Source: Escherichia coli (lineage in GTDB: Bacteria > Pseudomonadota > Gammaproteobacteria > Enterobacterales > Enterobacteriaceae). From it: a stretch of 64,000 nucleotides of DNA. Every line of letters starts with the position of its first letter. Positions within the stretch are counted from its first letter, which is position 1. A program made the translations under genes and the position numbers. Positions 3,650 through 33,212 of the stretch are shown in pieces. Under the pieces are notes generated by a model that worked only from the letters and a program-made list of their open reading frames with translations, had not been told where the DNA came from and searched no databases. The DNA lies in NCBI RefSeq assembly GCF_036507355.1, contig NZ_AP027877.1; one strand, written 5' to 3'.

Positions 3650-6600
3650 TTACGCCTTCTCGATGTTGACTAAGAACGCTTTATATTCCGGCGTTTGCGA
3701 GTTTGCATCACCGACATTCGGCGTCAGAGTGTTAGCGATATAACCTTTACGCGCGACACCCTCAAAGCCCCAGTGGATTGGAATACCCACCGTTTCAACC
3801 TGCTGACCATTTACATTCAGCGGTTTCAGACGACGCGTTACCACAGCCACCGCGCGGATAAAGCCACGCTTGCTTGAGACAGTGACACGATCGCCATTAT
3901 TAATGCCTTTCGCCGCCGCCAGCGTTTCGCTGATTTCCACAAACTGTTCCGGCTGAGCAATTGCGTTGAGCAATGCGTGCTTGGTCCAGGTGTGGAAGTG
4001 CTCGGTCAGACGATAGGTCGTACCCACATACGGGAACTGCTCTTTTTTACCCATCCGCAGTGCGTCTTGTTCATACAGACGAACAACCGGGTTAGACACC
4101 ACGTTCGGATGCAGCGGGTTAGTGCCCAGCGGCGTTTCAATCGGCTCGTAGTGTTCCGGGAACGGACCTTCCGCCATTTTGTTGATGGCAAACAGGCGTC
4201 CCATCCCTTCCGGCTGCATGATAAACGGCCCGGTTGGCGTACCCGGTGCGGCATTGCCGAAGTCAGGAATATCGTTACCCGTCCACTTGCTGCCGTTCCA
4301 CTGGATCAGCATCCGTTTCGGATCCCACGGTTTACCGTTGATATCCGCCGAAGCACGGTTGTACAGCACGCGACGGTTGAGCGGCCACGCCCAGGCCCAT
4401 CCCAGCGTATTCCCCAGACCGGACGGGTCGGAGTTATCGCGGTTAGCCATCTGGTTGCCCTGCTCTGTCCAGCTACCGGTGTAGATCCAGCAAGAAGATG
4501 CGGTTGTACCGTCATCACGCAGATGCGCAAAGCTACTCAGCAACTGACCTTTCTTCGCAATCAGCACGCCATTAGCATCATAGAGATCTTCCAGCGCATA
4601 GCCGTTGTTCTCTTTTGCCACTTCGTCAGATTGCGGTTCGTGCGGCTGCTTGTAGTTCCAGCTCATCTTCATCAGCGGTTCTACGCCTTTACCACCTTCG
4701 GCCTGGTACAGCTCGCGCAGATGATGGTAGATACCCGCCAGAATTTCGCCGTCGTTACGCGCTTCGCCCGGCGCGTCCTGACCTTTCCAGTGCCACTGCA
4801 ACCAGCGACCGGAGTTAGCGATAGAACCATCTTCTTCGGCAAAGCAGGTCGAAGGCAGACGGAATACTTCAGTCTGAATAGACGCCGGATCGACATCGTT
4901 CGACTCGCCGTGGTTCTGCCAGAAGGTAGAGGTTTCAGTCACCAGCGGATCGATAACCACCATGTACTTCAGTTTGCTCAGGCAGCTCACCACTTTGTTT
5001 TTGTCCGGGAAGGACGCAACCGGGTTAAAGCCCTGGCAGAAATAACCGGTGACTTTGCCTTCGTCCATCATGTTGAAATACTTGATGACGTCGTAGGTCT
5101 GGTCCCACTTCGGCAGCCAGTCATAGCCCCAGTTGTTCTCTTTCTGCGCGGCATCGCCATAGAAAGATTTCATCAGGCTAACGAAGAACTTCGGATAGTT
5201 GCTCCAGTAGTTCACCTGACCAGCCAGCGTTGCTTTCGGCGTGTTCGCTTCCAGATACGACTGCAAATCAACCTGTTTTTCTGACGGCAGCGTCAGATAA
5301 CCTGGCAGGCTGGTAGAGAGCAGGCCTAAGTCAGTCAGCCCCTGAATGTTGGAGTGACCACGCAATGCGTTCACGCCGCCACCGGCCATACCCATGTTAC
5401 CGAGTAGCAACTGGATCATCGCCATAGTACGGATGTTCTGCGCACCCACGGTGTGCTGCGTCCAGCCCAGCGCGTACAGGAAGGTGGTTGTGCGATCCGG
5501 TGCGCTGGTGGAGGCCAGCACTTCACACACTTTCAGGAAGTCGGCTTTTGGCGTACCGCAGATGTTTTCAACGACGTCCGGCGTGTAGCGGGAAACGTGC
5601 TCTTTCAGCAGGTTCCACACACAGCGCGGATGAGTCAGTGTTTCATCGCGTTTTGCATAGCCGTTTTCATCGAACTGATAGTTCCAGGACGATTTATCGT
5701 ATTGCCGTTTTTCAGCGTCGTAGCCGCTGAACAGACCGTCTTCGAAAGCAAAATCATCACGCACCAGCAAGCTGGCGTTGGTGTAATGCTTAACGTATTC
5801 AGCGTTGATTTTGTTGTTTTCGATCAGGTAGCGCAAAACGCCAGACAGGAACGTAATGTCCGTACCGGAACGAATAGGTGCGTAAATATCCGCTACAGAA
5901 GCGGTACGCGTAAAACGGGGATCGACAACGATCAAGGTTGCATCGTTGTTGTTTTTCGCTTCCATCGCCCAGCGGAAACCGACGGGATGCGCTTCAGCAG
6001 CGTTACCGCCCATTACCATTACGACGTTAGCGTTTTTGATATCCACCCAGTGGTTGGTCATCGCACCGCGACCAAATGTTGGAGCAAGACTTGCTACCGT
6101 TGGTCCGTGTCAGACGCGCGCCTGGTTGTCTACCGCCAGCATCCCGAGGGAGCGGGCAAATTTCTGGGTCAGCATCCCGGTTTCGTTGCTGGCACCGGAA
6201 GCACACAGCATACCGGTAGAAAGCCAACGGTTTACCGTTACGCCCTGCTCGTTCTTTTCAATAAAGTTAGCGTCACGGTCAGCTTTCATCAGCTTCGCAA
6301 TACGGGAGAATGCTTCTTCCCAGCTAATGCGCTGCCATTTGTCAGAACCTGGCGCACGATATTCCGGGTAGCGCAGACGGTTTTCGCTGTTGACGTAATC
6401 CAGCAAACCGGCCCCTTTCGGGCACAGCGCACCACGGCTTACCGGATGATCCGGGTCACCTTCAATGTGATAAATCGCTTCTCTGGCGTTTTTCGCGCCA
6501 TCACCCAGGCTATACATCAATAGCCCGCAACCTACGGAACAGTATGTGCAGGTGTTACGGATCTCTTTAGCGCGTAATAATTTGTAGTTTCGCGCCTGAG

Positions 6601-6697
6601 CCAGTGCTTGCTTCGGGGCAAAGCCCAATGCCGCTACTGTTGTTCCAGCCATACCGCCCGCGCAGATTTTAAAAAATTGTCTGCGACTGACGTCCAT
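3650..6697 (-). CDS. fdnG: Formate dehydrogenase-N alpha subunit, selenocysteine-containing (in-frame UGA at 6110-6112 read as Sec)
   Basis: Two same-frame ORFs (6697-6110 and 6061-3650) separated only by a TGA; Tat signal MDVSRRQFFK; total 1015 codons as in FdnG. Confidence 0.9.
6065..6112 (-). promoter_or_regulatory. Selenocysteine UGA codon plus downstream SECIS-region of fdnG mRNA
   Basis: In-frame TGA at codon 196 of fdnG; bacterial SECIS elements lie immediately 3' of the UGA (fold not computed). Confidence 0.6.
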
Positions 6698-6761
6698 TGC
6701 TTTCCTCTTTTTTCAGGGGTATTACTGCGCGAGGAAACTAACAGTAAAATTCTGAATCTTT

Positions 6762-6775
6762 TTGCGCGAAATCAA
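6762..6775 (-). promoter_or_regulatory. Putative FNR binding site of the fdnG promoter
   Basis: On the fdnG strand reads TTGATttcgCGCAA, a near-consensus FNR half-site pair (TTGAT-N4-ATCAA), about 70 bp upstream of the fdnG start. Confidence 0.5.
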
Positions 6776-6928
6776 AAAGAACACGTGTTTGCCACAAAAT
6801 AATCCGCCTTCGCAAATTGACCTACCTCAATAGCGGTAGAAAAACGCACCACTGCCTGACAGGCCAGTTAAAAAAATGCTATAAAATTCAGCTTAATTTT
6901 TAACGGCAAAAGAGACAAAACAGCGAGC

Positions 6929-7810
6929 ATGACACGACAAAAAGCAACGCTCATAGGGCTGATAGCGATCGTCCTGTGGAGCACGATGGTAGGATTGATT
7001 CGCGGTGTCAGTGAGGGGCTCGGCCCGGTCGGCGGCGCAGCTGCTATCTATTCATTAAGCGGGCTGCTGTTAATCTTCACGGTTGGATTTCCGCGTATTC
7101 GGCAAATCCCGAAAGGCTATTTACTCGCCGGGAGTCTGTTATTCGTCAGCTATGAAATCTGTCTGGCGCTTTCCTTAGGGTATGCGGCGACCCGTCATCA
7201 GGCGATTGAAGTGGGTATGGTGAACTATCTATGGCCCAGCCTGACAATTCTCTTTGCCATTCTGTTTAATGGTCAGAAAACCAACTGGCTGATTGTACCA
7301 GGATTATTATTAGCCCTCGTCGGCGTCTGTTGGGTGTTAGGCGGTGACAATGGGTTACATTATGATGAAATCATCAATAATATCACCACCAGCCCATTGA
7401 GTTATTTCCTGGCGTTCATTGGTGCGTTTATCTGGGCAGCCTACTGCACAGTAACGAATAAATACGCACGCGGATTTAACGGAATTACCGTTTTTGTCCT
7501 GCTAACGGGAGCAAGTCTGTGGGTTTACTATTTTCTTACGCCACAACCAGAAATGGTATTTAGCACGCCCGTCATGATTAAACTCATCTCTGCGGCATTT
7601 ACCTTAGGATTTGCTTATGCTGCATGGAATGTCGGTATATTGCATGGCAACGTCACCATTATGGCGGTAGGTTCGTATTTTACGCCCGTACTTTCCTCAG
7701 CGCTTGCAGCCGTGCTGCTCAGCGCCCCGCTGTCGTTCTCATTCTGGCAAGGCGCGCTAATGGTCTGCGGCGGTTCCCTGCTCTGCTGGCTGGCGACACG
7801 TCGTGGTTAA
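6929..7810 (+). CDS. yddG: Aromatic amino acid exporter (DMT superfamily)
   Basis: 293-aa polytopic membrane ORF; synteny next to fdnG. Confidence 0.85.
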   Translation: MTRQKATLIGLIAIVLWSTMVGLIRGVSEGLGPVGGAAAIYSLSGLLLIFTVGFPRIRQIPKGYLLAGSLLFVSYEICLALSLGYAATRHQAIEVGMVNYLWPSLTILFAILFNGQKTNWLIVPGLLLALVGVCWVLGGDNGLHYDEIINNITTSPLSYFLAFIGAFIWAAYCTVTNKYARGFNGITVFVLLTGASLWVYYFLTPQPEMVFSTPVMIKLISAAFTLGFAYAAWNVGILHGNVTIMAVGSYFTPVLSSALAAVLLSAPLSFSFWQGALMVCGGSLLCWLATRRG

Positions 7811-8068: not shown

Positions 8069-9169
8069 ATGAAATTAAAAATAGTTGCGGTGGTTGTAAC
8101 TGGTTTGTTAGCTGCGAACGTAGCACACGCTGCCGAAGTCTATAACAAGGATGGTAATAAACTCGACCTTTATGGCAAGGTTACCGCTCTACGTTATTTT
8201 ACTGATGATAAGCGTGACGATGGTGATAAAACTTATGCCCGTCTCGGCTTTAAAGGAGAAACGCAAATCAATGATCAAATGATTGGTTTTGGTCACTGGG
8301 AATATGATTTTAAAGGCTATAACGATGAAGCCAACGGCTCGCGCGGCAACAAGACCCGTCTGGCCTATGCTGGTTTAAAAATTAGTGAGTTTGGCTCTCT
8401 GGACTATGGTCGTAACTACGGTGTCGGCTATGACATTGGTTCATGGACCGATATGTTGCCAGAATTTGGTGGCGATACCTGGAGTCAGAAAGATGTCTTC
8501 ATGACATACCGTACCACCGGTGTAGCAACCTATCGCAACTACGATTTCTTTGGCTTAATTGAAGGGCTGAACTTTGCCGCGCAATATCAAGGCAAAAATG
8601 AACGTACTGACAACAGTCATCTTTATGGTGCAGACTACACGCGTGCCAACGGTGACGGTTTCGGTATCTCCTCAACTTATGTTTATGATGGCTTTGGTAT
8701 CGGTGCGGTATATACCAAATCCGATCGGACAAATGCGCAGGAAAGAGCCGCTGCTAATCCTCTTAATGCCTCCGGTAAGAATGCAGAACTGTGGGCCACA
8801 GGTATAAAGTATGATGCCAACAACATCTACTTTGCAGCTAATTACGCTGAAACATTAAACATGACCACCTATGGCGATGGTTATATCTCGAACAAAGCAC
8901 AAAGTTTTGAAGTGGTGGCGCAATATCAATTCGACTTCGGCTTGCGCCCATCACTCGCTTACCTGAAATCGAAAGGCAGAGATCTGGGCCGCTACGGCGA
9001 CCAGGACATGATTGAGTATATCGACGTTGGTGCGACGTATTTCTTCAACAAAAATATGTCGACCTATGTTGATTATAAAATCAACCTGATTGATGAAAGC
9101 GACTTTACCCGTGCCGTAGATATTCGCACCGATAACATCGTCGCAACGGGCATTACCTATCAGTTCTAA
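8069..9169 (+). CDS. yddL: General porin of the OmpC/OmpF/OmpN family (intact counterpart of the K-12 yddL pseudogene)
   Basis: 366-aa ORF, signal peptide ending [20 protein letters not shown]-terminal YQF; position between yddG and the LRR genes. Confidence 0.75.
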
Positions 9170-23259: not shown

Positions 23260-23626
23260 GATTGTGCTCCTTTTGAAAGATGTCAGTAAAATTAACACAC
23301 ATTGTGAATGTCGTGTGTCCGGTAATGCGTTTTTACGACAATAATGCCTGCTTGAAATTGTAGATATTTGCACTACACCCTTTTAAATAAAGCACCAACA
23401 AATCTTCAAATTGCAGGACATATTCTTCTGCCAATATACCATTAAGAAAACATCAAGTTCCCGGCTTGCCAATTTATTAACGCCCATTATAGACGCTGAA
23501 ACAAGCCACGGACAAAGAAGATGCCAAAATTACCGGCAATGCAGAAAAACTCAACGAACTGTTAGGTTAAATGGATAATTTTGAATTTTGGTTCAATATA
23601 GTGACACTATAAAATTACTTTGTATC

Positions 23627-23649
23627 GGGCAGGTGCCCTGCCCTTTTTT
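23627..23649 (+). terminator. Orphan rho-independent terminator (perfect 7-bp GC stem + T6)
   Basis: GGGCAGG-tgc-CCTGCCC followed by TTTTTT; overlaps a second CCCTTTTT/AAAAAGGG inverted repeat; no annotated + strand gene ends here. Confidence 0.5.
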
Positions 23650-23712
23650 AGTTAAAAAGGGCTGAAAGAAGAAATACGCATCATTCATGGAAAACTCGCC
23701 GCGATATGGTAA

Positions 23713-24015
23713 TTCGCGGCATGGCAATTAACTTGCCAGTCAGAGGATATTGTTGTCCGTTATGGTAGCGAAGATTTTGCCATCAAACTTTTTAATGCAA
23801 CATTGCCGGAAGCAGAGACGGTAGCAGCCAGAGTGAAACAAGAACTTAAACTGGCAGCTATCCCGCATCAGGCATCTGCTGTTAGTGCGTTCGTTACGGT
23901 TAGTCACGGGATTACCTGGTCTGCTCCCGCCAAAACGGCTGAACAAATTATTTCAGATGCCGACGCCGCGTTATACCGGGCGAAAGCAAGTGGGCGAAAT
24001 CGATGGGCTTTATAA
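23713..24015 (+). pseudogene. C-terminal fragment of a GGDEF-domain (diguanylate cyclase-like) protein
   Basis: In-frame translation ...RYGSEDFAIKL...SAFVTVSHGITW...ADAALYRAKASGRNRWAL matches the C-terminal half of GGDEF domains; no N-terminal part and a stop immediately upstream. Confidence 0.5.
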
Positions 24016-24078
24016 CTATTAGGGGACTGGCTAGATTACGTATCTTCGCTCTTAACAAGGACTGACGGCAGGGCAAGA

Positions 24079-25431: not shown

Positions 25432-26280
25432 TTAATGGAGAAGTGTTTTTTCTAATTCCGCTATTTTTTTCTTAACTGAATTGCTTAATATTTCATCATT
25501 AATCGAGTCTATCTCACTTTCAATTAATCTTATTTCAAAATATCTTTCTATGTTATATGCATTCTCAAATATTTGATCTTTTTGTTTAGAGATCAGTTTA
25601 GTTGCAATACGGATATGTTCGTCATATGAAACTTCATCCTCTTTGCACGTTGAATATTTATCAGTAGTTGTATAATCCTGTGACCACATACCACCTTTTT
25701 TATTATCCCCATAATACCACTGAATATGAGACATTTCATGACATAAAGTAGCAACATGAGAATCCTTTCCCGTTACTGGATTTTTTTTGCCATCTCTATA
25801 CTCAAATTTTGCGCCTATGTTAATTATATAGGGCATATCCTTACTTGGGCTGACGAATGCTGCAAATTCATTACAACCTGTATAATTTATAAAACTGCTC
25901 ATTGTTAAATCATTAGCTATAATCATTAATCTTCTCACGCCATCCATCATAAGAAATCTAGCATTCATGCGCCTACCTGTATTATGTCCATATTTTCTTA
26001 TATTAACTTCCTTATTTCCTTTAACACCAAAGATCTTACTGAAATAATATTCCTCCTGTGCTCCCCATCTCAAAAGATCATCTGCTCTTTTTATCAAAAC
26101 CAACTTTTGTGCCTTACGAGCCTTATCAATCATTATTTTAAAATGATCAGTTATTTTTTGCTCTTTCACACATTCTTCTGGCTCTGGCTTTGGTTGTCCA
26201 GAAGTTTGATTATTATCGTCCATAGTGTCCTTCCATTGAGAGAAAATCATCATTCGCAAATAGCAACTAAAAAGCAGCAT
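25432..26280 (-). CDS. Hypothetical protein with HExxH motif (putative zincin-like metallopeptidase or toxin domain)
   Basis: Motif ATLCHEMSHIQWYYG; ~30% GC; true start may be the internal MDDNNQ (26223); function inferred from motif only. Confidence 0.45.
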   Translation of the reverse strand: MLLFSCYLRMMIFSQWKDTMDDNNQTSGQPKPEPEECVKEQKITDHFKIMIDKARKAQKLVLIKRADDLLRWGAQEEYYFSKIFGVKGNKEVNIRKYGHNTGRRMNARFLMMDGVRRLMIIANDLTMSSFINYTGCNEFAAFVSPSKDMPYIINIGAKFEYRDGKKNPVTGKDSHVATLCHEMSHIQWYYGDNKKGGMWSQDYTTTDKYSTCKEDEVSYDEHIRIATKLISKQKDQIFENAYNIERYFEIRLIESEIDSINDEILSNSVKKKIAELEKTLLH

Positions 26281-26410
26281 TACTTGACCTTTCCCTGCAT
26301 AACAATATTTATAAAATAATACGTTTTATGATCTCACCTTGGGCTCCCAACAAGATAATTTCAGTTTTAAAGACTTTCACGAAAAAAATATAGAAATACC
26401 TCACCACCCT

Positions 26411-26701
26411 TCACTTACCAATTAATCTCACAGGAAATCCAACTTCCTTACCACAAATACAATCCCAAGTAACACCTCCCAAAATTTTTGATACTTTAGG
26501 CTGCAATGGCATTATTGACATTATAAATTTATCAAGTTCTTCGCTATATTTAATTCCCTTTATATTTCTTATTATTGATATTCTAGCAGTAAAGATAGCC
26601 GTCTCTCCATCTACACTAAAAGTGTAATTACAATTTTTTGTAATCTCATCAAATTCAACCGATAACAAATCAATATTATGGTTTGTAAACACTATGCCCA
26701 T
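26411..26701 (-). CDS. Putative immunity protein for the upstream effector
   Basis: 96-aa ORF whose start overlaps the effector 3' end by 26 nt; call rests on position and size only. Confidence 0.4.
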   Translation of the reverse strand: MGIVFTNHNIDLLSVEFDEITKNCNYTFSVDGETAIFTARISIIRNIKGIKYSEELDKFIMSIMPLQPKVSKILGGVTWDCICGKEVGFPVRLIGK

Positions 26702-28115
26702 TCCATACCTCCTTAAATTCCTGTTCAGTCATCAGATATCGACTCCCTTGATATGGATCATATATTATCACATTCCCAGCATCATCAACACCCTTAACAA
26801 GTACCCAATGCCCTACTTTACTTCCAGAATCCCACATCATTGCTCCCCATGAACCAGTATTACTGAGGGCATATAAACTAGATTCGCTCACTGCATTCCC
26901 TTCCCAGCCGACATCAAATTTATTAAGCTTGTTTGCCAGCGACGTCATAGATGTTAATTCTGTTCCAATTACATTTTGCGTGACAAAAATATACCTATCC
27001 CTAAGCAACATTTCCCCACAGGCCGCTCCACAGCCTGTTAAAGTCAATTGCTTTATTACATTTGAATCTAAAACCTCATCAAATACTGTCCAATTGCCAC
27101 CAGCACCACCTTCTAAAACTACCGGCTCTACAAATACTTTCCCAGAGATATTTTCTTCTGGTATTTTTGCGGGTATCATAAAGCCCCATAAAAAGCTGGC
27201 AAAATGCTCCAGAGCAATCTGATCACCATTATTTGCATCCATTATCATTTTTTTAAGTGCATCCCATGCTTGCCCATTTATCAATGAATCACTAATATTA
27301 AATAAAGCCTGTTCTTTTTCGTTTAAATTTATATTTGCCTGTTCACATAACCCATCTTCGCCTATCGGGCAAGCAACCGTTGCCGTTGCCGTATCTAACA
27401 GAGCATCGAATGTAACTAAGGCTAAATCCGCCACACCATGTAAAGTGGTGATTGCTCCATTCCCCATTTGAGTAAGTGTGTTCTCTACAAACCATTCTCT
27501 AATTTGAGATTTATCTCCTTCAATATCATTCCTGAGAGATTCTCTGATATTCTTTATTGAAAAAAACTCCCCCCATGATTGGTCAGGATCTTTTATTTGG
27601 AATAAATCATTTTTAACCTCAGGTGAAATATCTCCGTCAAAAATATTACCAACAGAGAGGAGATCCTTCAGAAGCAGTAAATCGTGTATTACTTCAGCAG
27701 TCCTTTCATAATTAAAAGTTCTATCAATGACAGAAATCATTGGTGATTTTATTTTGGTATATAATTTACCAAGGCAGTTATGGTTATTAATCCCAACAAC
27801 TGAACCATGATAAGCGACAGGTCTCCCCTCTATTGTTACAGTCGGACTTCCCGTTAAAATAACGCAGTCACCTGTTCCTTGAGATGTACCAGATATGACA
27901 CCTTTACCGGCATTACTTTGAGTTCCAGCAATCACTGAACCAACATTTAAAGCTCTGCATCCACGCGCCCATACCGTTGAACTGTACTGCCTTTCACTAT
28001 CTAAAGTCTGGTAACTGTCAAAAGGAACCTTGTCACCTCCTACTTCACATACATCTGGTGAAGAGCACACGACTTTAAATCTACATTCACCATCCCCGAT
28101 ATGATAGCTACCCAT
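26676..28115 (-). CDS. Putative T6SS effector: N-terminal DUF4150-type PAAR-like domain, C-terminal C39-like papain-fold Cys peptidase domain
   Basis: N-term SPDVC...VPFDSY...GKGVISGTSQG...TVTIEGRPVAYHGSVVGINNHN resembles the DUF4150 pattern; C-term GCGAACGEML and GHWVLVKGVDD...IIYDP resemble Cys and His motifs of C39/papain-like peptidases; downstream of vgrG. Confidence 0.6.
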   Translation of the reverse strand: MGSYHIGDGECRFKVVCSSPDVCEVGGDKVPFDSYQTLDSERQYSSTVWARGCRALNVGSVIAGTQSNAGKGVISGTSQGTGDCVILTGSPTVTIEGRPVAYHGSVVGINNHNCLGKLYTKIKSPMISVIDRTFNYERTAEVIHDLLLLKDLLSVGNIFDGDISPEVKNDLFQIKDPDQSWGEFFSIKNIRESLRNDIEGDKSQIREWFVENTLTQMGNGAITTLHGVADLALVTFDALLDTATATVACPIGEDGLCEQANINLNEKEQALFNISDSLINGQAWDALKKMIMDANNGDQIALEHFASFLWGFMIPAKIPEENISGKVFVEPVVLEGGAGGNWTVFDEVLDSNVIKQLTLTGCGAACGEMLLRDRYIFVTQNVIGTELTSMTSLANKLNKFDVGWEGNAVSESSLYALSNTGSWGAMMWDSGSKVGHWVLVKGVDDAGNVIIYDPYQGSRYLMTEQEFKEVWNGHSVYKP

Positions 28116-28698
28116 AATATTTTTTTCCTATACATTCAGGAATAATACAACTCAGCACTCCTTCTTTCATTCCAAAAAAATCAGGTATTGTCAATCTCCA
28201 GGTAAGGTATATTTCCTGTCGATTTAAATCGATAACCATTGTATCCGCAACAGGTAAGAACATATGAGATGTATTATGCTTGGTTTTTAATATAAGTACA
28301 GGTCGTATACCTGGCAATTTTGTCTTAACAACCTGTTCAAATTTAAAAAAACCTTCAAGAGTGATGTTTTCATCGCCAGAGAGAAACCCCGCGTATATCA
28401 TATCCGGATGAGCACTATTGTAGAACCTCTCATCAAAATCATCCGGCAAATAGGGATAGCGCTTTTCACGCCATACTTCATTGTAGGTTCCTGCATACTG
28501 GAGGCGACTTTTCCACCATCGAGATACAGGGCCAACGCCTTGAAAAAAGTCAGATTCCCCATTAAAAATGGTAGCGTTTTCTGACAAAGCAGAGCTGGTT
28601 ATTTGTGGGAGTTTATATTGACAACTTGTATTAAGTTGGGAAATATCAGGATAATATCCACAACCTACAGGGTTTGCTGAAAAAACCAATTTTCCCAT
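28108..28698 (-). CDS. Hypothetical protein in adaptor/chaperone position between vgrG and the effector
   Basis: 196-aa ORF; stop overlaps effector start by 8 nt; adaptor role (DUF2169-type by analogy) inferred from gene order only. Confidence 0.35.
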   Translation of the reverse strand: MGKLVFSANPVGCGYYPDISQLNTSCQYKLPQITSSALSENATIFNGESDFFQGVGPVSRWWKSRLQYAGTYNEVWREKRYPYLPDDFDERFYNSAHPDMIYAGFLSGDENITLEGFFKFEQVVKTKLPGIRPVLILKTKHNTSHMFLPVADTMVIDLNRQEIYLTWRLTIPDFFGMKEGVLSCIIPECIGKKYYG

Positions 28699-29560
28699 AC
28701 CATCTGGTTGCCAAATACCACCGTAAGCAAGCTCATAGCGTAGAGGAATATTAATAATTTTATCGTGAGATGCTGATCGTTCGCTACCACAATCTTCTGA
28801 TCATGACTGCCTTCCTTCTTACTCCCAACATTCACCGTCTGACCCACACCCACCGTAATTTTCTGGTTATTGGTTATGGTTTCCGTGTGGTCGTGTTTCA
28901 CCGTCGTCGTCCGGTCATTCAGCACCTCCGTATCCATGTTCTTCTGCGCATGGATATACACCTGCTCATTACTGGTGGCGTCTTCAAACCGCAGCTCGTT
29001 AAATCCGCTTCCTTTATAGGTTTTTGACCGGATGGTCATCTGCGTCTTCGTTCCCGGCAGGTCGCCCGGCGAACGGTTGTCCTCATGGTAGGTCCGCCCC
29101 ATGATTATCGGCTGGTCCGGGTCGCCGTTCAGAAAATCAACAATCACCTCCTGGCCCACCCGCGGTATCGCCAGGTTACCGAACCCCGGCCCCGCCCACG
29201 CCTGCGATACCCGCACCCAGCATGAACTCGCCTCCGTCATCCCGTGATAACGGTCCCAGTGGAACTTCACCCGTACCCGGCCATGTTCATCGCAGAAGAT
29301 TTCCTCTCCCGCAGGCCCGGTGACAATGGCACTCTGCGGCCCGTCCACCTTCGGTTTGCTTTGCAGCCGTGGACGCCACGTCCGGTCCGCCGGTATCACC
29401 TCTAACTGATTTCCCAGCGTGGTTCCTCTCCCTTGGCTGCCGTGCAGCGCCTGCGGCTGGTTTCCTGACAGAATGCTCTGTACCACCTGCCATTCACGGT
29501 TCAGCATCTTCTGCGGATGAGGTGTACTGGCAATAGCGGACACTACCATTTGTTCTTTTT

Positions 29561-30379
29561 TTAAGCAGCCATCTGATGATATTTTTCCCTGAAGGCTGCC
29601 GGGGAGATATTCCCCAGACGAGAGTGACGACGCTGACGATTGTAGAAAATCTCAATGTATTCCCGTATTACTGAGATGGCTTCATCCCGGTTATTAAAAC
29701 GATAGTGGCTCAGGCTCTCATTTTTCAGCGTTCCCCAGAAGCTTTCCATCGGAGCGTTGTCGTAACAGTTACCTTTACGCGACATTGATGTTTTCAGACC
29801 AAACTGCTCCTGTATGACCCGGTAATCGTATGCGCAGTACTGTGAACCTCGATCAGAGTGGTGGATTAGCCCGGCAGGTGGGCGCTGTCTCCTGAGCGCC
29901 ATAAACAGGGCTTTACCTGTCAGCTCTTTTGTCATGCGCTCTCCCATGGCGTAGCCGACAATTTCGCACGTATAAACATCTTTGATGCCAGCGAGGTACA
30001 ACCATCCCTCCTGTGTGGCAACATACGTCAGGTCCGCCACCCAGACCTGATTTGGTGCTGTAGGAGCGAACGTCTGGTTCAGCAGATTTGGCGCAACTGG
30101 CAGATTGTGGTTCGAGTTCGTAGTCGCTCTGAACTTGCGTTTCTGCTTACAGCGTAGCCTTAGCTCCTTACGAAGACGTGCCAGTCGGTCACGACCAACG
30201 ATGATGCCATTCTCTGCCAGCTCCGTCTGGAGCCGCCGGGTTCCATATGTTTCGCGAGTGCGGATATGTGCCACCTTAATCTCCAGTTTTAGCCGCTCAT
30301 CACTTTGTTTTCTGTCTGAGGGTTCATGCTGTACCCAGTTGTAATAACCGCTCCTGGATACACCAAATACCTGACACAT
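29561..30379 (-). CDS. IS600-like transposase OrfB (DDE integrase core)
   Basis: 272-aa ORF with IS3-family OrfB sequence; normally expressed as an OrfAB fusion by -1 frameshifting. Confidence 0.8.
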   Translation of the reverse strand: MCQVFGVSRSGYYNWVQHEPSDRKQSDERLKLEIKVAHIRTRETYGTRRLQTELAENGIIVGRDRLARLRKELRLRCKQKRKFRATTNSNHNLPVAPNLLNQTFAPTAPNQVWVADLTYVATQEGWLYLAGIKDVYTCEIVGYAMGERMTKELTGKALFMALRRQRPPAGLIHHSDRGSQYCAYDYRVIQEQFGLKTSMSRKGNCYDNAPMESFWGTLKNESLSHYRFNNRDEAISVIREYIEIFYNRQRRHSRLGNISPAAFREKYHQMAA

Positions 30380-30414
30380 CGCTTCAATGGGAAATTGTTG
30401 TCGCCATTGTTCGA

Positions 30415-30717
30415 TTAACGCGTATTTTTCAGCGACTCCTGTGCAAAATACGCTGTTGCTTTTTTTAATATATCTCGCTCAAGGCGAGCTTCATTTAACG
30501 CCTTACGCAGTTGCAGAATTTCAGATTCCAGTTCAGCCACCGTGCGGGAACCAGGAGTACCGAGCCCTTTTCTGGCGGCGGTAACCCATTGTCCTAAAGT
30601 GCCTTCAGGAAGAGATAATCGGGAAGCGCCTTCACTGATCGAAAGTTGATTTTCAAGAACCGTTCTGACAGCTTCGGCTTTGAACTCTTTAGAGTAACGT
30701 TGGGTTTTTCTGCTCAT
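30415..30717 (-). CDS. IS600-like transposase OrfA (HTH)
   Basis: 100-aa ORF MSRKTQRYSKEFKAEAVR... typical of IS3-family OrfA. Confidence 0.8.
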   Translation of the reverse strand: MSRKTQRYSKEFKAEAVRTVLENQLSISEGASRLSLPEGTLGQWVTAARKGLGTPGSRTVAELESEILQLRKALNEARLERDILKKATAYFAQESLKNTR

Positions 30718-31725
30718 TATTAGCTCCTTCTGATGCCATTCTATTTCAGGAAGGAGTGTCCGTTAAACTCAGGCTACCTCAGGATGCCCCGTCAGCGTAA
30801 ACCGCGTTCCCGGCCACAGCCTCGGCGAATTACTCTGCCCTGTGGCCTTTTCCGCATCACTGCGCAGGCTCTCCATCTGGTACAGCGTGAAATCCTTGCC
30901 GTGCTGCTCATCCTTGAACCTTCCCGGATAATCAAATATTTCATACTGCGCCAGCTGTCCGTTCAGGTTCTCACCCTGCTGCTCATACATCCCCGGCCAG
31001 TCCGGCACCTTAAACGTGTAATCCTGGCTCTGCACCGACGACGGGCGGACATGCGCCTCATAACGGAACATACTGAGACACTCCGTCTCCGCTCCTGCCG
31101 ATGTGTCCGGGTTAAACGGAAGCTCTCCCGCCTGTGACAGCCCCGCCACATCGTCGCACAGCGTCAGCTTCTGCTCCGGACTGTCCGCCGCAAACCGCTC
31201 AAAGAAGAAAATTCCCTCCTCCGCCCACAGCCGGGACAGAAACGCCAGGTCGCTTTCCCCGTACTGGACACAGAACTCCCGCGCCGGATGGTCCTCATAA
31301 AACAGCGGCGTCCACTCCGTGACGCCGTTCTCGTTCAGTAACGTGGCCGATATCGTCCGGATATCCTGCTGCTGGAAGATACGGAAGTTCTGCCGCAGCC
31401 CGCACCGCCATAACGGCGGCTCAATACGCAGGTGATAACGCATCTGCCAGCCGTTATTCTCCTGCATACCAAAACCCGCCACCACGCCGGTGACATAACG
31501 CTGCGCCACTGCGCCCTGCCAGATGGTCAGCGTCGCCTTCTTCTCCAGCAGCATCTCCGCCGTCTGCATAAAAGAGTCGCTGGCAACATCCACACTCATC
31601 ACAAACGGATATGACTGGCTCTGGATTAACCGGAAGCTCACCACTGCAAAGGTGTCCGGCTCCTGGCCGTCAACCTCCAGCGTAAAGCGAAGACCTTTTA
31701 ATGACATAAATACCTCTCAGACATA

Positions 31726-32010
31726 TCAGCCTATATTTACCGTGCCGCCACCGATAACCACGCCGCCGCAGTCAACAGCATCACCGCTTCTGGCGGCGGG
31801 CAGACCGTCAATAAAGACGGTTGAAGAACCTCTGGCGATTTTTCGGGGATGAGGGGGATGCTTCGGTTTAGCATGCGGCGTCAGCGGATCTCCCTGACGG
31901 GCTGCGGGAAGACCATCGATAAAGACGGTGGATGACCCGGCGGTGATGACGGTCTCGTAATAACCGTCGTGCTGGGTGCCTTTGTCGGTGAGTTTGGCTG
32001 CTAAAGGCAT
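31726..32010 (-). CDS. PAAR-repeat protein (T6SS spike tip)
   Basis: 94-aa ORF containing GLPAARQGD and GLPAARSGD; immediately upstream of vgrG on the same strand. Confidence 0.8.
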   Translation of the reverse strand: MPLAAKLTDKGTQHDGYYETVITAGSSTVFIDGLPAARQGDPLTPHAKPKHPPHPRKIARGSSTVFIDGLPAARSGDAVDCGGVVIGGGTVNIG

Positions 32011-32340
32011 AATTCCTCCTGTTCAGAATTTCTACAGCAGCAGGTTTCAAAAATCCGGAGAAATATTCAACGAAATATTAATCACTTCACCGGATATTCT
32101 GATACGTACCTTCACTGGTCTATTTAAGTAATACAAATTGTTGGCGTGTATTAAGTTCCATTTTGTTCTCCTTAATTATGTAAGGAGTATTTGATCATGT
32201 ATAAGCAATAAAAACAGCTTCAGGAAATAAGGAATATCGCAATTTTTAAACATAAAATGCGAATCGTTCAATACAAAAAAGCAGCGTTGCGTAATCTTTC
32301 CCTGATTAAATACGCTACCGCCCTACTCTGATGACATGAT

Positions 32341-32397
32341 CTGCACTGCACTGCACTGCACTGCACTGCACTGCACTGCACTGCACTGCACTGCACT
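32341..32397. repeat. Pentanucleotide tandem repeat (CTGCA) x 11.4
   Basis: Perfect direct repeat read from the sequence; intergenic, ~330 bp upstream of the PAAR start. Confidence 0.95.
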
Positions 32398-32594
32398 ATC
32401 ATATCGACATGTTTCTCTACATGCGAAGAGATGTTTTATTTTCGGATTATATTAAATTGATATTTCATATAAAAAACGAAATTACATCAATCATATAAAT
32501 AATTGTATCAACTTTAATTACTATTCATAGCAAACAAATGGATATCCAGTTAACTACGCCAGTGATTCATTAACATTAACCTCCGGCATTATTG

Positions 32595-33212
32595 TTAAAT
32601 AATGACATTCCTTTTTAATACTTCTTGTAATTTCGGTAACTGACATACAGCATCAGCAATCGCACTGATATTCGTGGCATTATCCTGAAACCATTCATGC
32701 CCAGGCCCCCATGTGCGCATAGTGCAAAGATAACAGTCCACCAGCGTTAGTTGCTCACCAAACGCATAAGGTTCAGCGGTCAATTGTGAATTCAGCCAGA
32801 TATAAAGCGATTTACGATATTCAATAACATTCTTCTTTAACTGTTCGGGTGCGTCAGGAGCCCAACGCTCAGGGTAATCGGCGAAAGTGAATGTTGGATA
32901 GACATTAGCAACCAGCCAGACCAATAGCCGTTGAAACTGCTGACGTTCGGCGCGCCCAACCGGTGGCGCAAGGTCCGGGCGACGATCGAGAACCATCAAT
33001 GCAATCGCCGCTGTCTCCGTCATAATCTCGTCATTTTCCAGCGCCAGTGTCGGAATCTGACACAACGGGTTCAGGGTTTTCAATAACTCGCGTGAAGTTC
33101 CCTCGTGGTCAAAACCACTGACATCAACGAACTGATAAGGAATATCAGCCAGTGTTAGCATCAGCTCACTGATTGTAGAGCCCCATCCGGGTACGCCATA
33201 CACCTTAATCAT
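32595..33212 (-). CDS. yncG: Glutathione S-transferase-like protein
   Basis: 205-aa ORF; synteny next to ansP. Confidence 0.8.
   Translation of the reverse strand: MIKVYGVPGWGSTISELMLTLADIPYQFVDVSGFDHEGTSRELLKTLNPLCQIPTLALENDEIMTETAAIALMVLDRRPDLAPPVGRAERQQFQRLLVWLVANVYPTFTFADYPERWAPDAPEQLKKNVIEYRKSLYIWLNSQLTAEPYAFGEQLTLVDCYLCTMRTWGPGHEWFQDNATNISAIADAVCQLPKLQEVLKRNVII

Follow-up and report, generated by a model that had tools for sequence, protein, structure and literature searches.

An IS600 insertion and a separate 803-bp deletion in vgrG of an orphan type VI secretion effector island of Escherichia coli

The spike gene vgrG is broken at two places in an orphan type VI secretion (T6SS) effector island that yncG and pptA flank in an E. 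coli chromosome. An IS600 element splits the gene, and 803 bp are missing from its 3′ end and the start of the DUF2169 gene that follows. That the spike gene was thus hit twice, by the insertion and by a separate deletion, and that the island is a decayed orphan, is in our judgment very probable.

The window, i.e., the whole stretch of 64,000 nucleotides that was analyzed, carries the island genes in the order PAAR - vgrG - DUF2169 - PAAR-like/C39 toxin - small putative immunity gene, as follows.

31726..32010, minus strand: canonical T6SS PAAR gene, 94 aa, intact, directly upstream of vgrG (Pfam PAAR_motif)
30782..31707, minus strand: vgrG 5′ fragment, nt 1-926, codons 1-309 (Phage_GPD), collinear with 5749-7319 of the intact locus L001
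28758..29517, minus strand: vgrG 3′ fragment, nt 924-1683, codons 309-561 (L001 7315-8076)
28108..28764, minus strand: DUF2169 chaperone gene remnant, codons 131-348 at the DNA level (callable ORF 28108-28698, 196 aa)
26676..28115, minus strand: effector gene, intact, 479 aa (Pfam PF13665 and PF03412)
26411..26701, minus strand: 96-aa ORF, intact, putative immunity gene, overlapping the 3′ end of the toxin gene

The PAAR, PAAR-like/C39 toxin, and putative immunity genes are intact and conserved across the lineage. The PAAR protein matches NCBIfam NF033420 over its full length (156.5 bits, 1-94/94) and is identical to its L001 counterpart at 94/94 residues. The effector joins an N-terminal PAAR-like (DUF4150/'PIPY') domain to a C-terminal C39-like peptidase; it is identical to the L001 protein at 469 of 479 residues, and the exact protein is present on 14 contigs. 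The 96-aa ORF, putatively the immunity gene by its position, matches an L001 hypothetical protein at 95/96 residues and no Pfam family. A scan of 26000-33000 against Rfam returned no RNA family. In the source strain the region bears the locus tags VEE46_22550-22590.

The gene order and domain content are those of synteny type B, the vgrG - DUF2169 - DUF4150 ('PIPY') effector clusters of Sachar et al. 2025 (PMC11883445), and the module is complete in the intact relatives L001 and L002. The window departs from that arrangement in that the VgrG tip and the N-terminal 130 residues of DUF2169 are deleted and vgrG is split by the IS. In addition, a canonical PAAR gene lies upstream, which is reported to be rare beside DUF2169 (PMC11883445), and the only DUF4150 motif that a pattern search finds in the effector is KVPF, at residues 29-32, rather than P(I/V)P(Y/F).

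The first lesion breaks the vgrG reading frame after nt 926 with 1264 bp of IS600, the features of which are as follows.

29518..30781, minus strand (same orientation as vgrG): IS600 (IS3 family), 1264 bp, 99.9% identity over 1-1264
30755..30781, minus strand: left terminal inverted repeat, transposase-proximal, 5′-TGAGGTAGCC...
29518..29544, plus strand: right terminal inverted repeat, 5′-TGAGGTGTAC... read inward
30415..30717, minus strand: orfA, 100 aa, HTH_Tnp_1 (Pfam PF01527; NF033516 model positions 1-86)
29561..30379, minus strand: orfB, 272 aa from its ATG, rve DDE integrase core (Pfam rve, rve_2, rve_3, HTH_21)
30460..30466, minus strand: A7 slippery run (TTA AAA AAA G), predicted -1 frameshift site, within the orfA/orfB overlap
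30782..30784: target-site duplication copy 1, ending the vgrG 5′ fragment; GGA on the plus strand, TCC on the gene strand
29515..29517: target-site duplication copy 2, vgrG nt 924-926; GGA on the plus strand, TCC on the gene strand

A preliminary description of this DNA had placed an IS600-like element of 1264 bp, with imperfect terminal inverted repeats, at 29518-30781. The coordinates and length stand, and the element is IS600 itself: it aligns at 99.9% identity over its full length, 1-1264, to loci annotated 'IS3-like element IS600 family transposase', which supplies the IS3-family match on which that description had staked its reading. In 247 plasmid records there are copies that span 80% or more of the query. 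The ends of the element, TGAGGTGTACTGGCAATAGCGGACACT and TGAGGTAGCCTGAGTTTAACGGACACT, match at 19 of 27 positions, so the repeats are imperfect as described; each end sequence is unique in the window, against a chance expectation of 0, and the window has only one IS600 copy. The termini, TGAGGT...ACCTCA, end in 5′-TG...CA-3′ and are identical in four other copies. At the left end, a promoter-like site lies at 30766-30738. orfB scores 336 bits on NF033516 (model positions 106-369) and lies in the -1 frame, open from 30478, such that an OrfA-OrfB fusion would be 385 aa without an internal stop; a stem-loop folds downstream of the A7 run (z = -2.6).

IS600 is a member of the IS3 group of the IS3 family and was first described in Shigella sonnei. 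Its ISfinder length we take to be 1264 bp; a literature search for a stated length found none. Compared with the reference element, the window copy shares the length, the termini (TGAGGTAGCC...ACACCTCA), orfA and orfB, the A7 run, the rve DDE core, and the 3-bp duplication, its ORFs and ends being intact. It departs only at IS position 894 (window 29888), where its base differs from that of all four copies compared base by base; this private change gives OrfB R164 instead of S. Two of those four copies differ from the window copy at one further position.

The target site can be read directly from uninterrupted genes. Intact E. coli alleles read GGGGCA-TCC-GCAGAAG at the site, with one TCC where the window has two, and the L001 alignments of the two vgrG halves overlap there. 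Because the intact alleles carry a single triplet, the direct GGA repeat noted earlier on both sides of the element is a true target-site duplication rather than a chance repeat. The 3-bp duplication habit was checked empirically on IS600 copies elsewhere, and two of three independent insertions showed it. As had also been proposed, removal of the IS and one GGA rejoins the halves in frame (1776 nt, 591 aa plus stop, ...RFTLTGHP|QKMLNREWQVV...), and across the site the rejoined product aligns with intact VgrG at 541/561 identical residues without gaps.

The rejoined protein matches Phage_GPD at 33-328 and Phage_base_V at 385-451, i.e., a gp27-like hub and a gp5-like OB fold, and is 96% identical to a 660-aa protein scoring 601 bits on TIGR03361. 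As called, the 5′ ORF encodes 312 aa, running 3 codons into the IS (..GHP-EVA*); its product is exactly BED22491.1. In the protein cluster table this fragment is found on one 4.64-Mb chromosome, and an exact look-up of contigs encoding it returned no match. The 3′ fragment holds the OB fold and the first part of a gp5-type β-helix (Phage_base_V; Gp5_trimer_C 1-96/112). The public record lists 'hypothetical proteins' flanking the IS (BED22488.1 and BED22491.1) and at the DUF2169 gene (BED22487.1); these are pseudogene fragments.

The second lesion is seen when the IS-free sequence is set against intact alleles, in which VgrG has 660 aa (vgrG, 1983 bp) and DUF2169 348 aa (1047 bp). IS-free VgrG matches the intact protein over residues 1-561 and then continues with 30 unrelated residues. 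Intact loci span 3737 bp versus 2934 bp for the IS-free query, which aligns in two pieces. The missing 803 bp comprise vgrG codons 562-660, a 106-bp spacer, and DUF2169 codons 1-130. vgrG has thereby lost its stop codon and its last 99 codons, and with them the C-terminal β-helix/tip region (residues 562-660 of intact relatives), and it is fused to DUF2169 out of frame. The junction is as follows.

28758..28764, minus strand: deletion junction, one kept copy of the 7-bp direct repeat GATAAAA

L001 has two copies of GATAAAA, at 8070-8076 and 8873-8879, against one in the window; the probability of a microhomology of at least 7 bp is about 6e-4. The DUF2169 remnant covers Pfam profile positions 137-294 of 294, compared with 7-294 for the intact 348-aa protein, and is identical at 192/196 residues to residues 153-348. 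The segment 28665-28757 is DUF2169 DNA read out of frame; it supplies the truncated vgrG ORF with a tail of 30 codons. Thus, the earlier span for vgrG, 28665-31707, is correct as sequence, but 28665 is the stop of this tail and not the native end of the gene. Two other origins for the short allele were considered. An IS-adjacent deletion is rejected, since 753 bp separate the junction from the IS end and the deleted segment runs between 7-bp direct repeats, and a natural vgrG variant is rejected because the tail is frameshifted DUF2169 DNA.

Both lesions can be accounted for by common processes. IS600 would have entered vgrG after nt 926 (His308/Pro309) by the action of its DDE transposase OrfAB, presumably produced by -1 frameshifting on the A7 run, and a 3-bp staggered cut of the target would have left the TCC/GGA duplication. 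The insertion cuts VgrG in two, the N-terminal fragment being gp27-like and the C-terminal one promoterless. The 803 bp were lost between the GATAAAA repeats, probably by slipped-strand or illegitimate recombination, for which such repeats are typical. The locus is then expected to yield no working spike and no chaperone for it. DUF2169 is needed for DUF4150/PIPY domains to build a functional spike complex with VgrG (PMC11883445). Without spike and chaperone, the intact PAAR-like toxin would therefore not be loadable by its cognate partners.

The lesions are shared with other assemblies. GCA_905398585.1 has the identical IS/vgrG junction, reaching 77 nt into the IS, plus the deletion junction. 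In GCA_016660925.1, GCA_021425525.1, and SRR26926489, contigs with the deletion begin 0-2 bp away from the IS boundary. The insertion is thus common to at least one other assembly and probably to four others; the deletion junction is also present in 13 other contigs. Both lesions appear to be fixed in a small E. coli lineage. Among the assemblies and alleles examined there is no allele with the IS only or the deletion only. None of the 15 cluster members examined has the deletion tail, and scans of the metagenome_contigs and genome_contigs collections for the exact IS junction and the exact deletion junction were empty. With the IS-free query, the best 30 matches listed from RefSeq complete E. 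coli include none of at least 99% and none in a single piece. The insertion had been called recent, which holds in a relative sense, given the perfect duplication and the one base separating this copy from others, although it is already present in other assemblies.

The order of the two events bears on what the IS did. The deletion may have killed vgrG first, with IS600 a neutral passenger in a pseudogene, a course of events to which we give slightly less than an even chance. All contigs with the deletion that reach the site are compatible with the IS, the search brought up no IS-only allele, IS elements can accumulate freely in pseudogenes, and the element is a single base off other copies. 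Against this, the search for deletion-only alleles was likewise without success, the exact 591-aa product does not occur among about 15 billion proteins, the junction scans came back empty, and the reverse order fits the data equally well.

It is improbable that the rearranged locus keeps residual function or has gained a new one. Examples would be an IS-borne ATG (29549) that expresses a 294-aa gp5-like fragment, IS600 read-through driving expression of toxin and immunity genes, or delivery by a paralogous spike. An in-frame ATG in the IS end does open a 294-aa ORF into the vgrG 3′ part, and the toxin, immunity, and PAAR genes are intact across the lineage. But the 294-aa ORF finishes in the nonsense tail, effectors of this class reportedly require their cognate DUF2169 (PMC11883445), and intactness may merely mean that there has been too little time for decay. 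Equally doubtful is the related proposal that the toxin module is maintained, not merely undecayed, by being re-routed to a paralogous VgrG/DUF2169 or by expression through IS600 read-through or the IS-borne ATG; if true, IS600 would be part of a rewired effector locus.

The preliminary description took the IS as the only lesion, a single clean and recent insertion; on that reading, excision would give a functional 591-aa VgrG. The in-frame rejoining, the gapless alignment across the site, the perfect duplication, and the nearly unmutated IS all speak for this, and 'clean' is apt for the IS event. It does not fit the state of the gene, from which the separate deletion has removed the 3′ end: the 592-codon ORF is not a native vgrG, its last 30 codons being out-of-frame DUF2169 DNA, the next gene has lost 130 codons, and the public proteomes searched lack the exact 591-aa product. 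IS600 excision would not repair vgrG, because the deletion also broke the gene, and a single lesion is very unlikely. Least credible is a misassembly of a multicopy repeat that put the IS into vgrG. Many E. coli and Shigella genomes do have IS600 in multiple copies, but the identical junction in the independent assembly GCA_905398585.1 and the breaks at the IS boundary in three further assemblies speak against such an error, and a perfect 3-bp duplication matching the single copy in intact alleles would be unexpected from it.

The doubly broken vgrG can be compared with other cases of IS600 insertion. In STEC O121:H19, IS600 in lacZ is fixed in the lineage and is in principle reversible by IEE-promoted excision (PMC9397093). 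In both cases it is IS600 that inactivates a gene of the E. coli chromosome, but vgrG of the window, unlike lacZ, is not restorable by excision because the deletion removed the vgrG 3′ end and part of the next gene. IS600 is also one of five IS that expanded and inactivated genes in Shigella/EIEC (Hawkey et al. 2020, PMC7373316); the IS-driven pseudogenization is the same, with just one IS600 in the 64 kb here.

The locus exemplifies routine decay by IS insertion and deletion; vgrG is an ordinary pseudogene, broken twice, and the case has little significance beyond annotation. Since the yncG-pptA island is decayed, it should not be credited with delivery of its toxin. For the scanning of genomes there is a caution: rejoining in frame after in silico excision of an IS is no proof that a gene is otherwise intact, and comparison to a full-length allele is needed before an IS-split gene is so called. 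The strain may hold other vgrG/DUF2169 paralogues, outside the window, that service the toxin.

Finally, many short-read contigs end at about 28950, within vgrG, which hints at paralogous vgrG copies.

The window is E. coli chromosome, with the island flanked by nhoA-yddH-pptA and, at its opposite end, by yncG-ansP-yncE-pqqU. Between yncG and pptA, the gene order is PAAR (94 aa), vgrG, DUF2169, a PAAR-like (DUF4150)/C39-like toxin (479 aa), and a 96-aa ORF that is the putative immunity gene. Relative to the intact island of E. coli PapRG-04-4 (L001), the island is collinear at ~98–99% bar two lesions, an IS600 in vgrG and an 803-bp deletion from vgrG into the DUF2169 gene. The other island genes are intact (identities to L001: PAAR 94/94, toxin 469/479, small ORF 95/96). 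Sachar et al. 2025 (PMC11883445) class the vgrG-DUF2169-DUF4150 effector order as ‘synteny type B’ and show that DUF4150/PIPY domains depend on their cognate DUF2169 for a functional spike complex with VgrG. DUF2169 is reported to lie only rarely next to canonical PAAR genes (PMC11883445); this island holds a canonical PAAR gene, upstream of vgrG (31726–32010), and also the DUF4150 PAAR-like effector, downstream of DUF2169 (26676–28115). In the effector, a pattern search found KVPF at residues 29–32 in place of the P(I/V)P(Y/F) motif.

The preliminary description, which saw vgrG as inactivated by a clean IS600-like insertion, is correct in all its sequence-level statements. The inserted segment is 1264 bp long, its ends are imperfect inverted repeats (19 of the 27 first positions match), GGA stands on both flanks, and removal of the segment with one GGA rejoins vgrG in frame, giving a 1776-nt minus-strand ORF (591 aa plus stop; junction ...TLTGHP/QKMLNREW...). 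Each segment end occurs once in the window, versus 0 occurrences expected by chance. On the plus strand, the boundaries read ...TTCTGCGGA/TGAGGTGTACTGGCAATAGCGGACAC... at 29517/29518 and ...GTGTCCGTTAAACTCAGGCTACCTCA/GGATGCCCCG... at 30781/30782. The uninterrupted allele exists in related strains: L001 and FDAARGOS_1254 (L002) have GGGGCA-TCC-GCAGAAG, with one TCC, where the window has TCC-IS600-TCC, and the L001 alignments left and right of IS600 meet at this triplet. Other IS600 insertions made 3-bp duplications in two of three independent cases examined (GTC, GAA). Judged by these alignments, the 3-bp duplication at the vgrG site is real. IS600 follows vgrG nt 926 (codons His308/Pro309) and points in the same direction as vgrG.

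The assignment to IS600, and to the IS3 family, holds as well. Over positions 1–1264, the element is 99.9% identical to loci on E. coli and Shigella sonnei plasmids that are annotated ‘IS3-like element IS600 family transposase’, copies spanning at least 80% of the query are found in 247 plasmid records, and the anatomy is standard for the family:

30415–30717, minus strand, orfA, HTH_Tnp_1 (Pfam)
29561–30379, minus strand, orfB, rve DDE core (Pfam)
30460–30466, minus strand, A7 run (TTA AAA AAA G) within the orfA/orfB overlap

Jointly, orfA and orfB match positions 1–86 and 106–369 of the NCBIfam IS3 transposase model. orfB lies in the −1 frame, open from 30478, and a predicted slip on the A7 run would give an OrfAB of 385 aa with 0 internal stops; a stem-loop is predicted 3′ of the run (z = −2.6). 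The left end contains a promoter-like site. Base by base, the termini equal those of four other full-length copies. A private base at IS position 894 (window 29888) gives OrfB Arg164, where the four others have Ser.

The second lesion changes how the rejoined ORF must be read. A query of the IS-free locus (2934 bp) against complete E. coli genomes matched intact loci of 3737 bp in two pieces, and these loci carry a vgrG of 1983 bp (660 aa) and a DUF2169 gene of 1047 bp (348 aa). Pairwise BLAST placed query 1–2076 on L001 6001–8076 and 2070–2934 on L001 8873–9737. That is, the window is without 803 bp present in L001. GATAAAA occurs twice in L001 (8070–8076, 8873–8879) and once in the window (28758–28764). 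Counting the first repeat copy as retained, the missing parts are:

vgrG nt 1684–1983, 99 codons plus stop
vgrG-DUF2169 spacer, 106 bp
DUF2169 gene, first 397 nt (given the 7-bp repeat, the remnant is equally countable from nt 391, codon 131)

A loss of 803 bp, a number not divisible by three, puts the vgrG-DUF2169 fusion out of frame. The product aligns with intact VgrG without gaps over residues 1–561 (541/561 identical), stops within the gp5 C-terminal domain (Pfam), and continues with 30 residues of unrelated sequence (LLIFLYAMS...QQTL), which are translated from DUF2169 DNA. The downstream 196-aa ORF matches the DUF2169 profile at positions 137–294 only (Pfam). Thus, the 591-aa ORF is ruled out as a restored vgrG, intact alleles encoding 660 aa, and position 28665, formerly given as the vgrG end, is where the nonsense tail has its stop. 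The IS part of the earlier interpretation stands; the lesion is not clean, sole or repairable. Microhomology of at least 7 bp at a random breakpoint pair in the region has a chance of ~6e-4, so the junction looks like the result of a deletion by slipped-strand or illegitimate recombination. Sequence similarity to VgrG proteins of solved structure extends to about residue 535, which makes the lost residues 562–660 the distal, allele-specific spike end. From PAAR-VgrG complexes, we take the distal end to be the docking place of the tip protein, and the lost residues would be where it docks.

The fragments flanking the IS are exactly BED22491.1 (312 aa, VEE46_22590) and BED22488.1 (294 aa, VEE46_22560) of one 4,643,937-bp E. 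coli chromosome. The latter, a ‘hypothetical protein’ of the public record, arises within window 29494–29549 from an ATG (29549) that lies inside the right end of IS600 and shares its frame with the vgrG fragment downstream. The exact 591-aa product is absent among ~15 billion proteins. The 196-aa remnant (BED22487.1) and the exact toxin are each on 14 contigs, and the deletion junction was found in 13 of 13 distinct contigs examined. The GCA_905398585.1 contig starts 77 nt inside IS600, with an IS/vgrG junction identical to the window’s. For GCA_016660925.1, GCA_021425525.1, and SRR26926489, the contig starts lie at window 29515, 29516, and 29519, 0–2 bp from the IS boundary, as expected where a multicopy IS interrupts short-read assembly; all other contigs begin around 28950 or farther downstream, placing the insertion site outside their reach. 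The assemblies differ from the window by ~0.05–0.15% over 4–9 kb, and the shared junctions and low divergence indicate that a small lineage carried both lesions before it diversified. No single-lesion allele was found in the contigs and collections searched, and the data are compatible with either lesion first. Scanning the metagenome collection and the species-representative genome collection for the exact junctions gave no match. Seven independent short-read/metagenome contigs (L004, L006–L010, L012) share a start at ~28949–28954, in the vgrG gp5 region, which suggests that a repeat shared with other vgrG paralogues of the samples has its boundary there; further vgrG copies may thus exist in the lineage.

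IS3-family elements transpose by copy-out/paste-in via a circular intermediate. On the best-supported account, IS600 would have transposed into vgrG, leaving the 3-bp duplication, and an independent microhomology-mediated deletion, before or after, would have joined the 3′ part of vgrG to mid-gene DUF2169 sequence. With both lesions, the locus would make neither spike nor chaperone, while PAAR, the toxin, and the putative immunity gene are retained. Precise excision of IS600 promoted by IEE, as described for E. coli (PMC9397093), would not rescue vgrG. IS600 is known to expand and inactivate genes in Shigella and EIEC (PMC7373316), and the vgrG locus shows no departure from known kinds. A homologous vgrG in E. 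coli NY1601 (H61, NZ_CM135959.1, 3813051–3815994) is split by another IS3-family element, ISEc31; thus, IS insertions recur in this vgrG family.

Elsewhere, approximately 509 bp (23560–24068) are missing from the otherwise collinear L001. Their plus strand reads as diguanylate cyclase sequence of the GGDEF type, C-terminal part (...RYGSEDFAI...DADAALYRAKASGRNRW), and they appear to be a gene fragment adjoining an ISAs1-family transposase remnant. Downstream of the putative immunity gene, the window has an uninterrupted ORF at 25432–26280 (282 aa, without a Pfam match); its L001 counterpart (11413–12203) is annotated ‘peptidase M35, frameshifted’.
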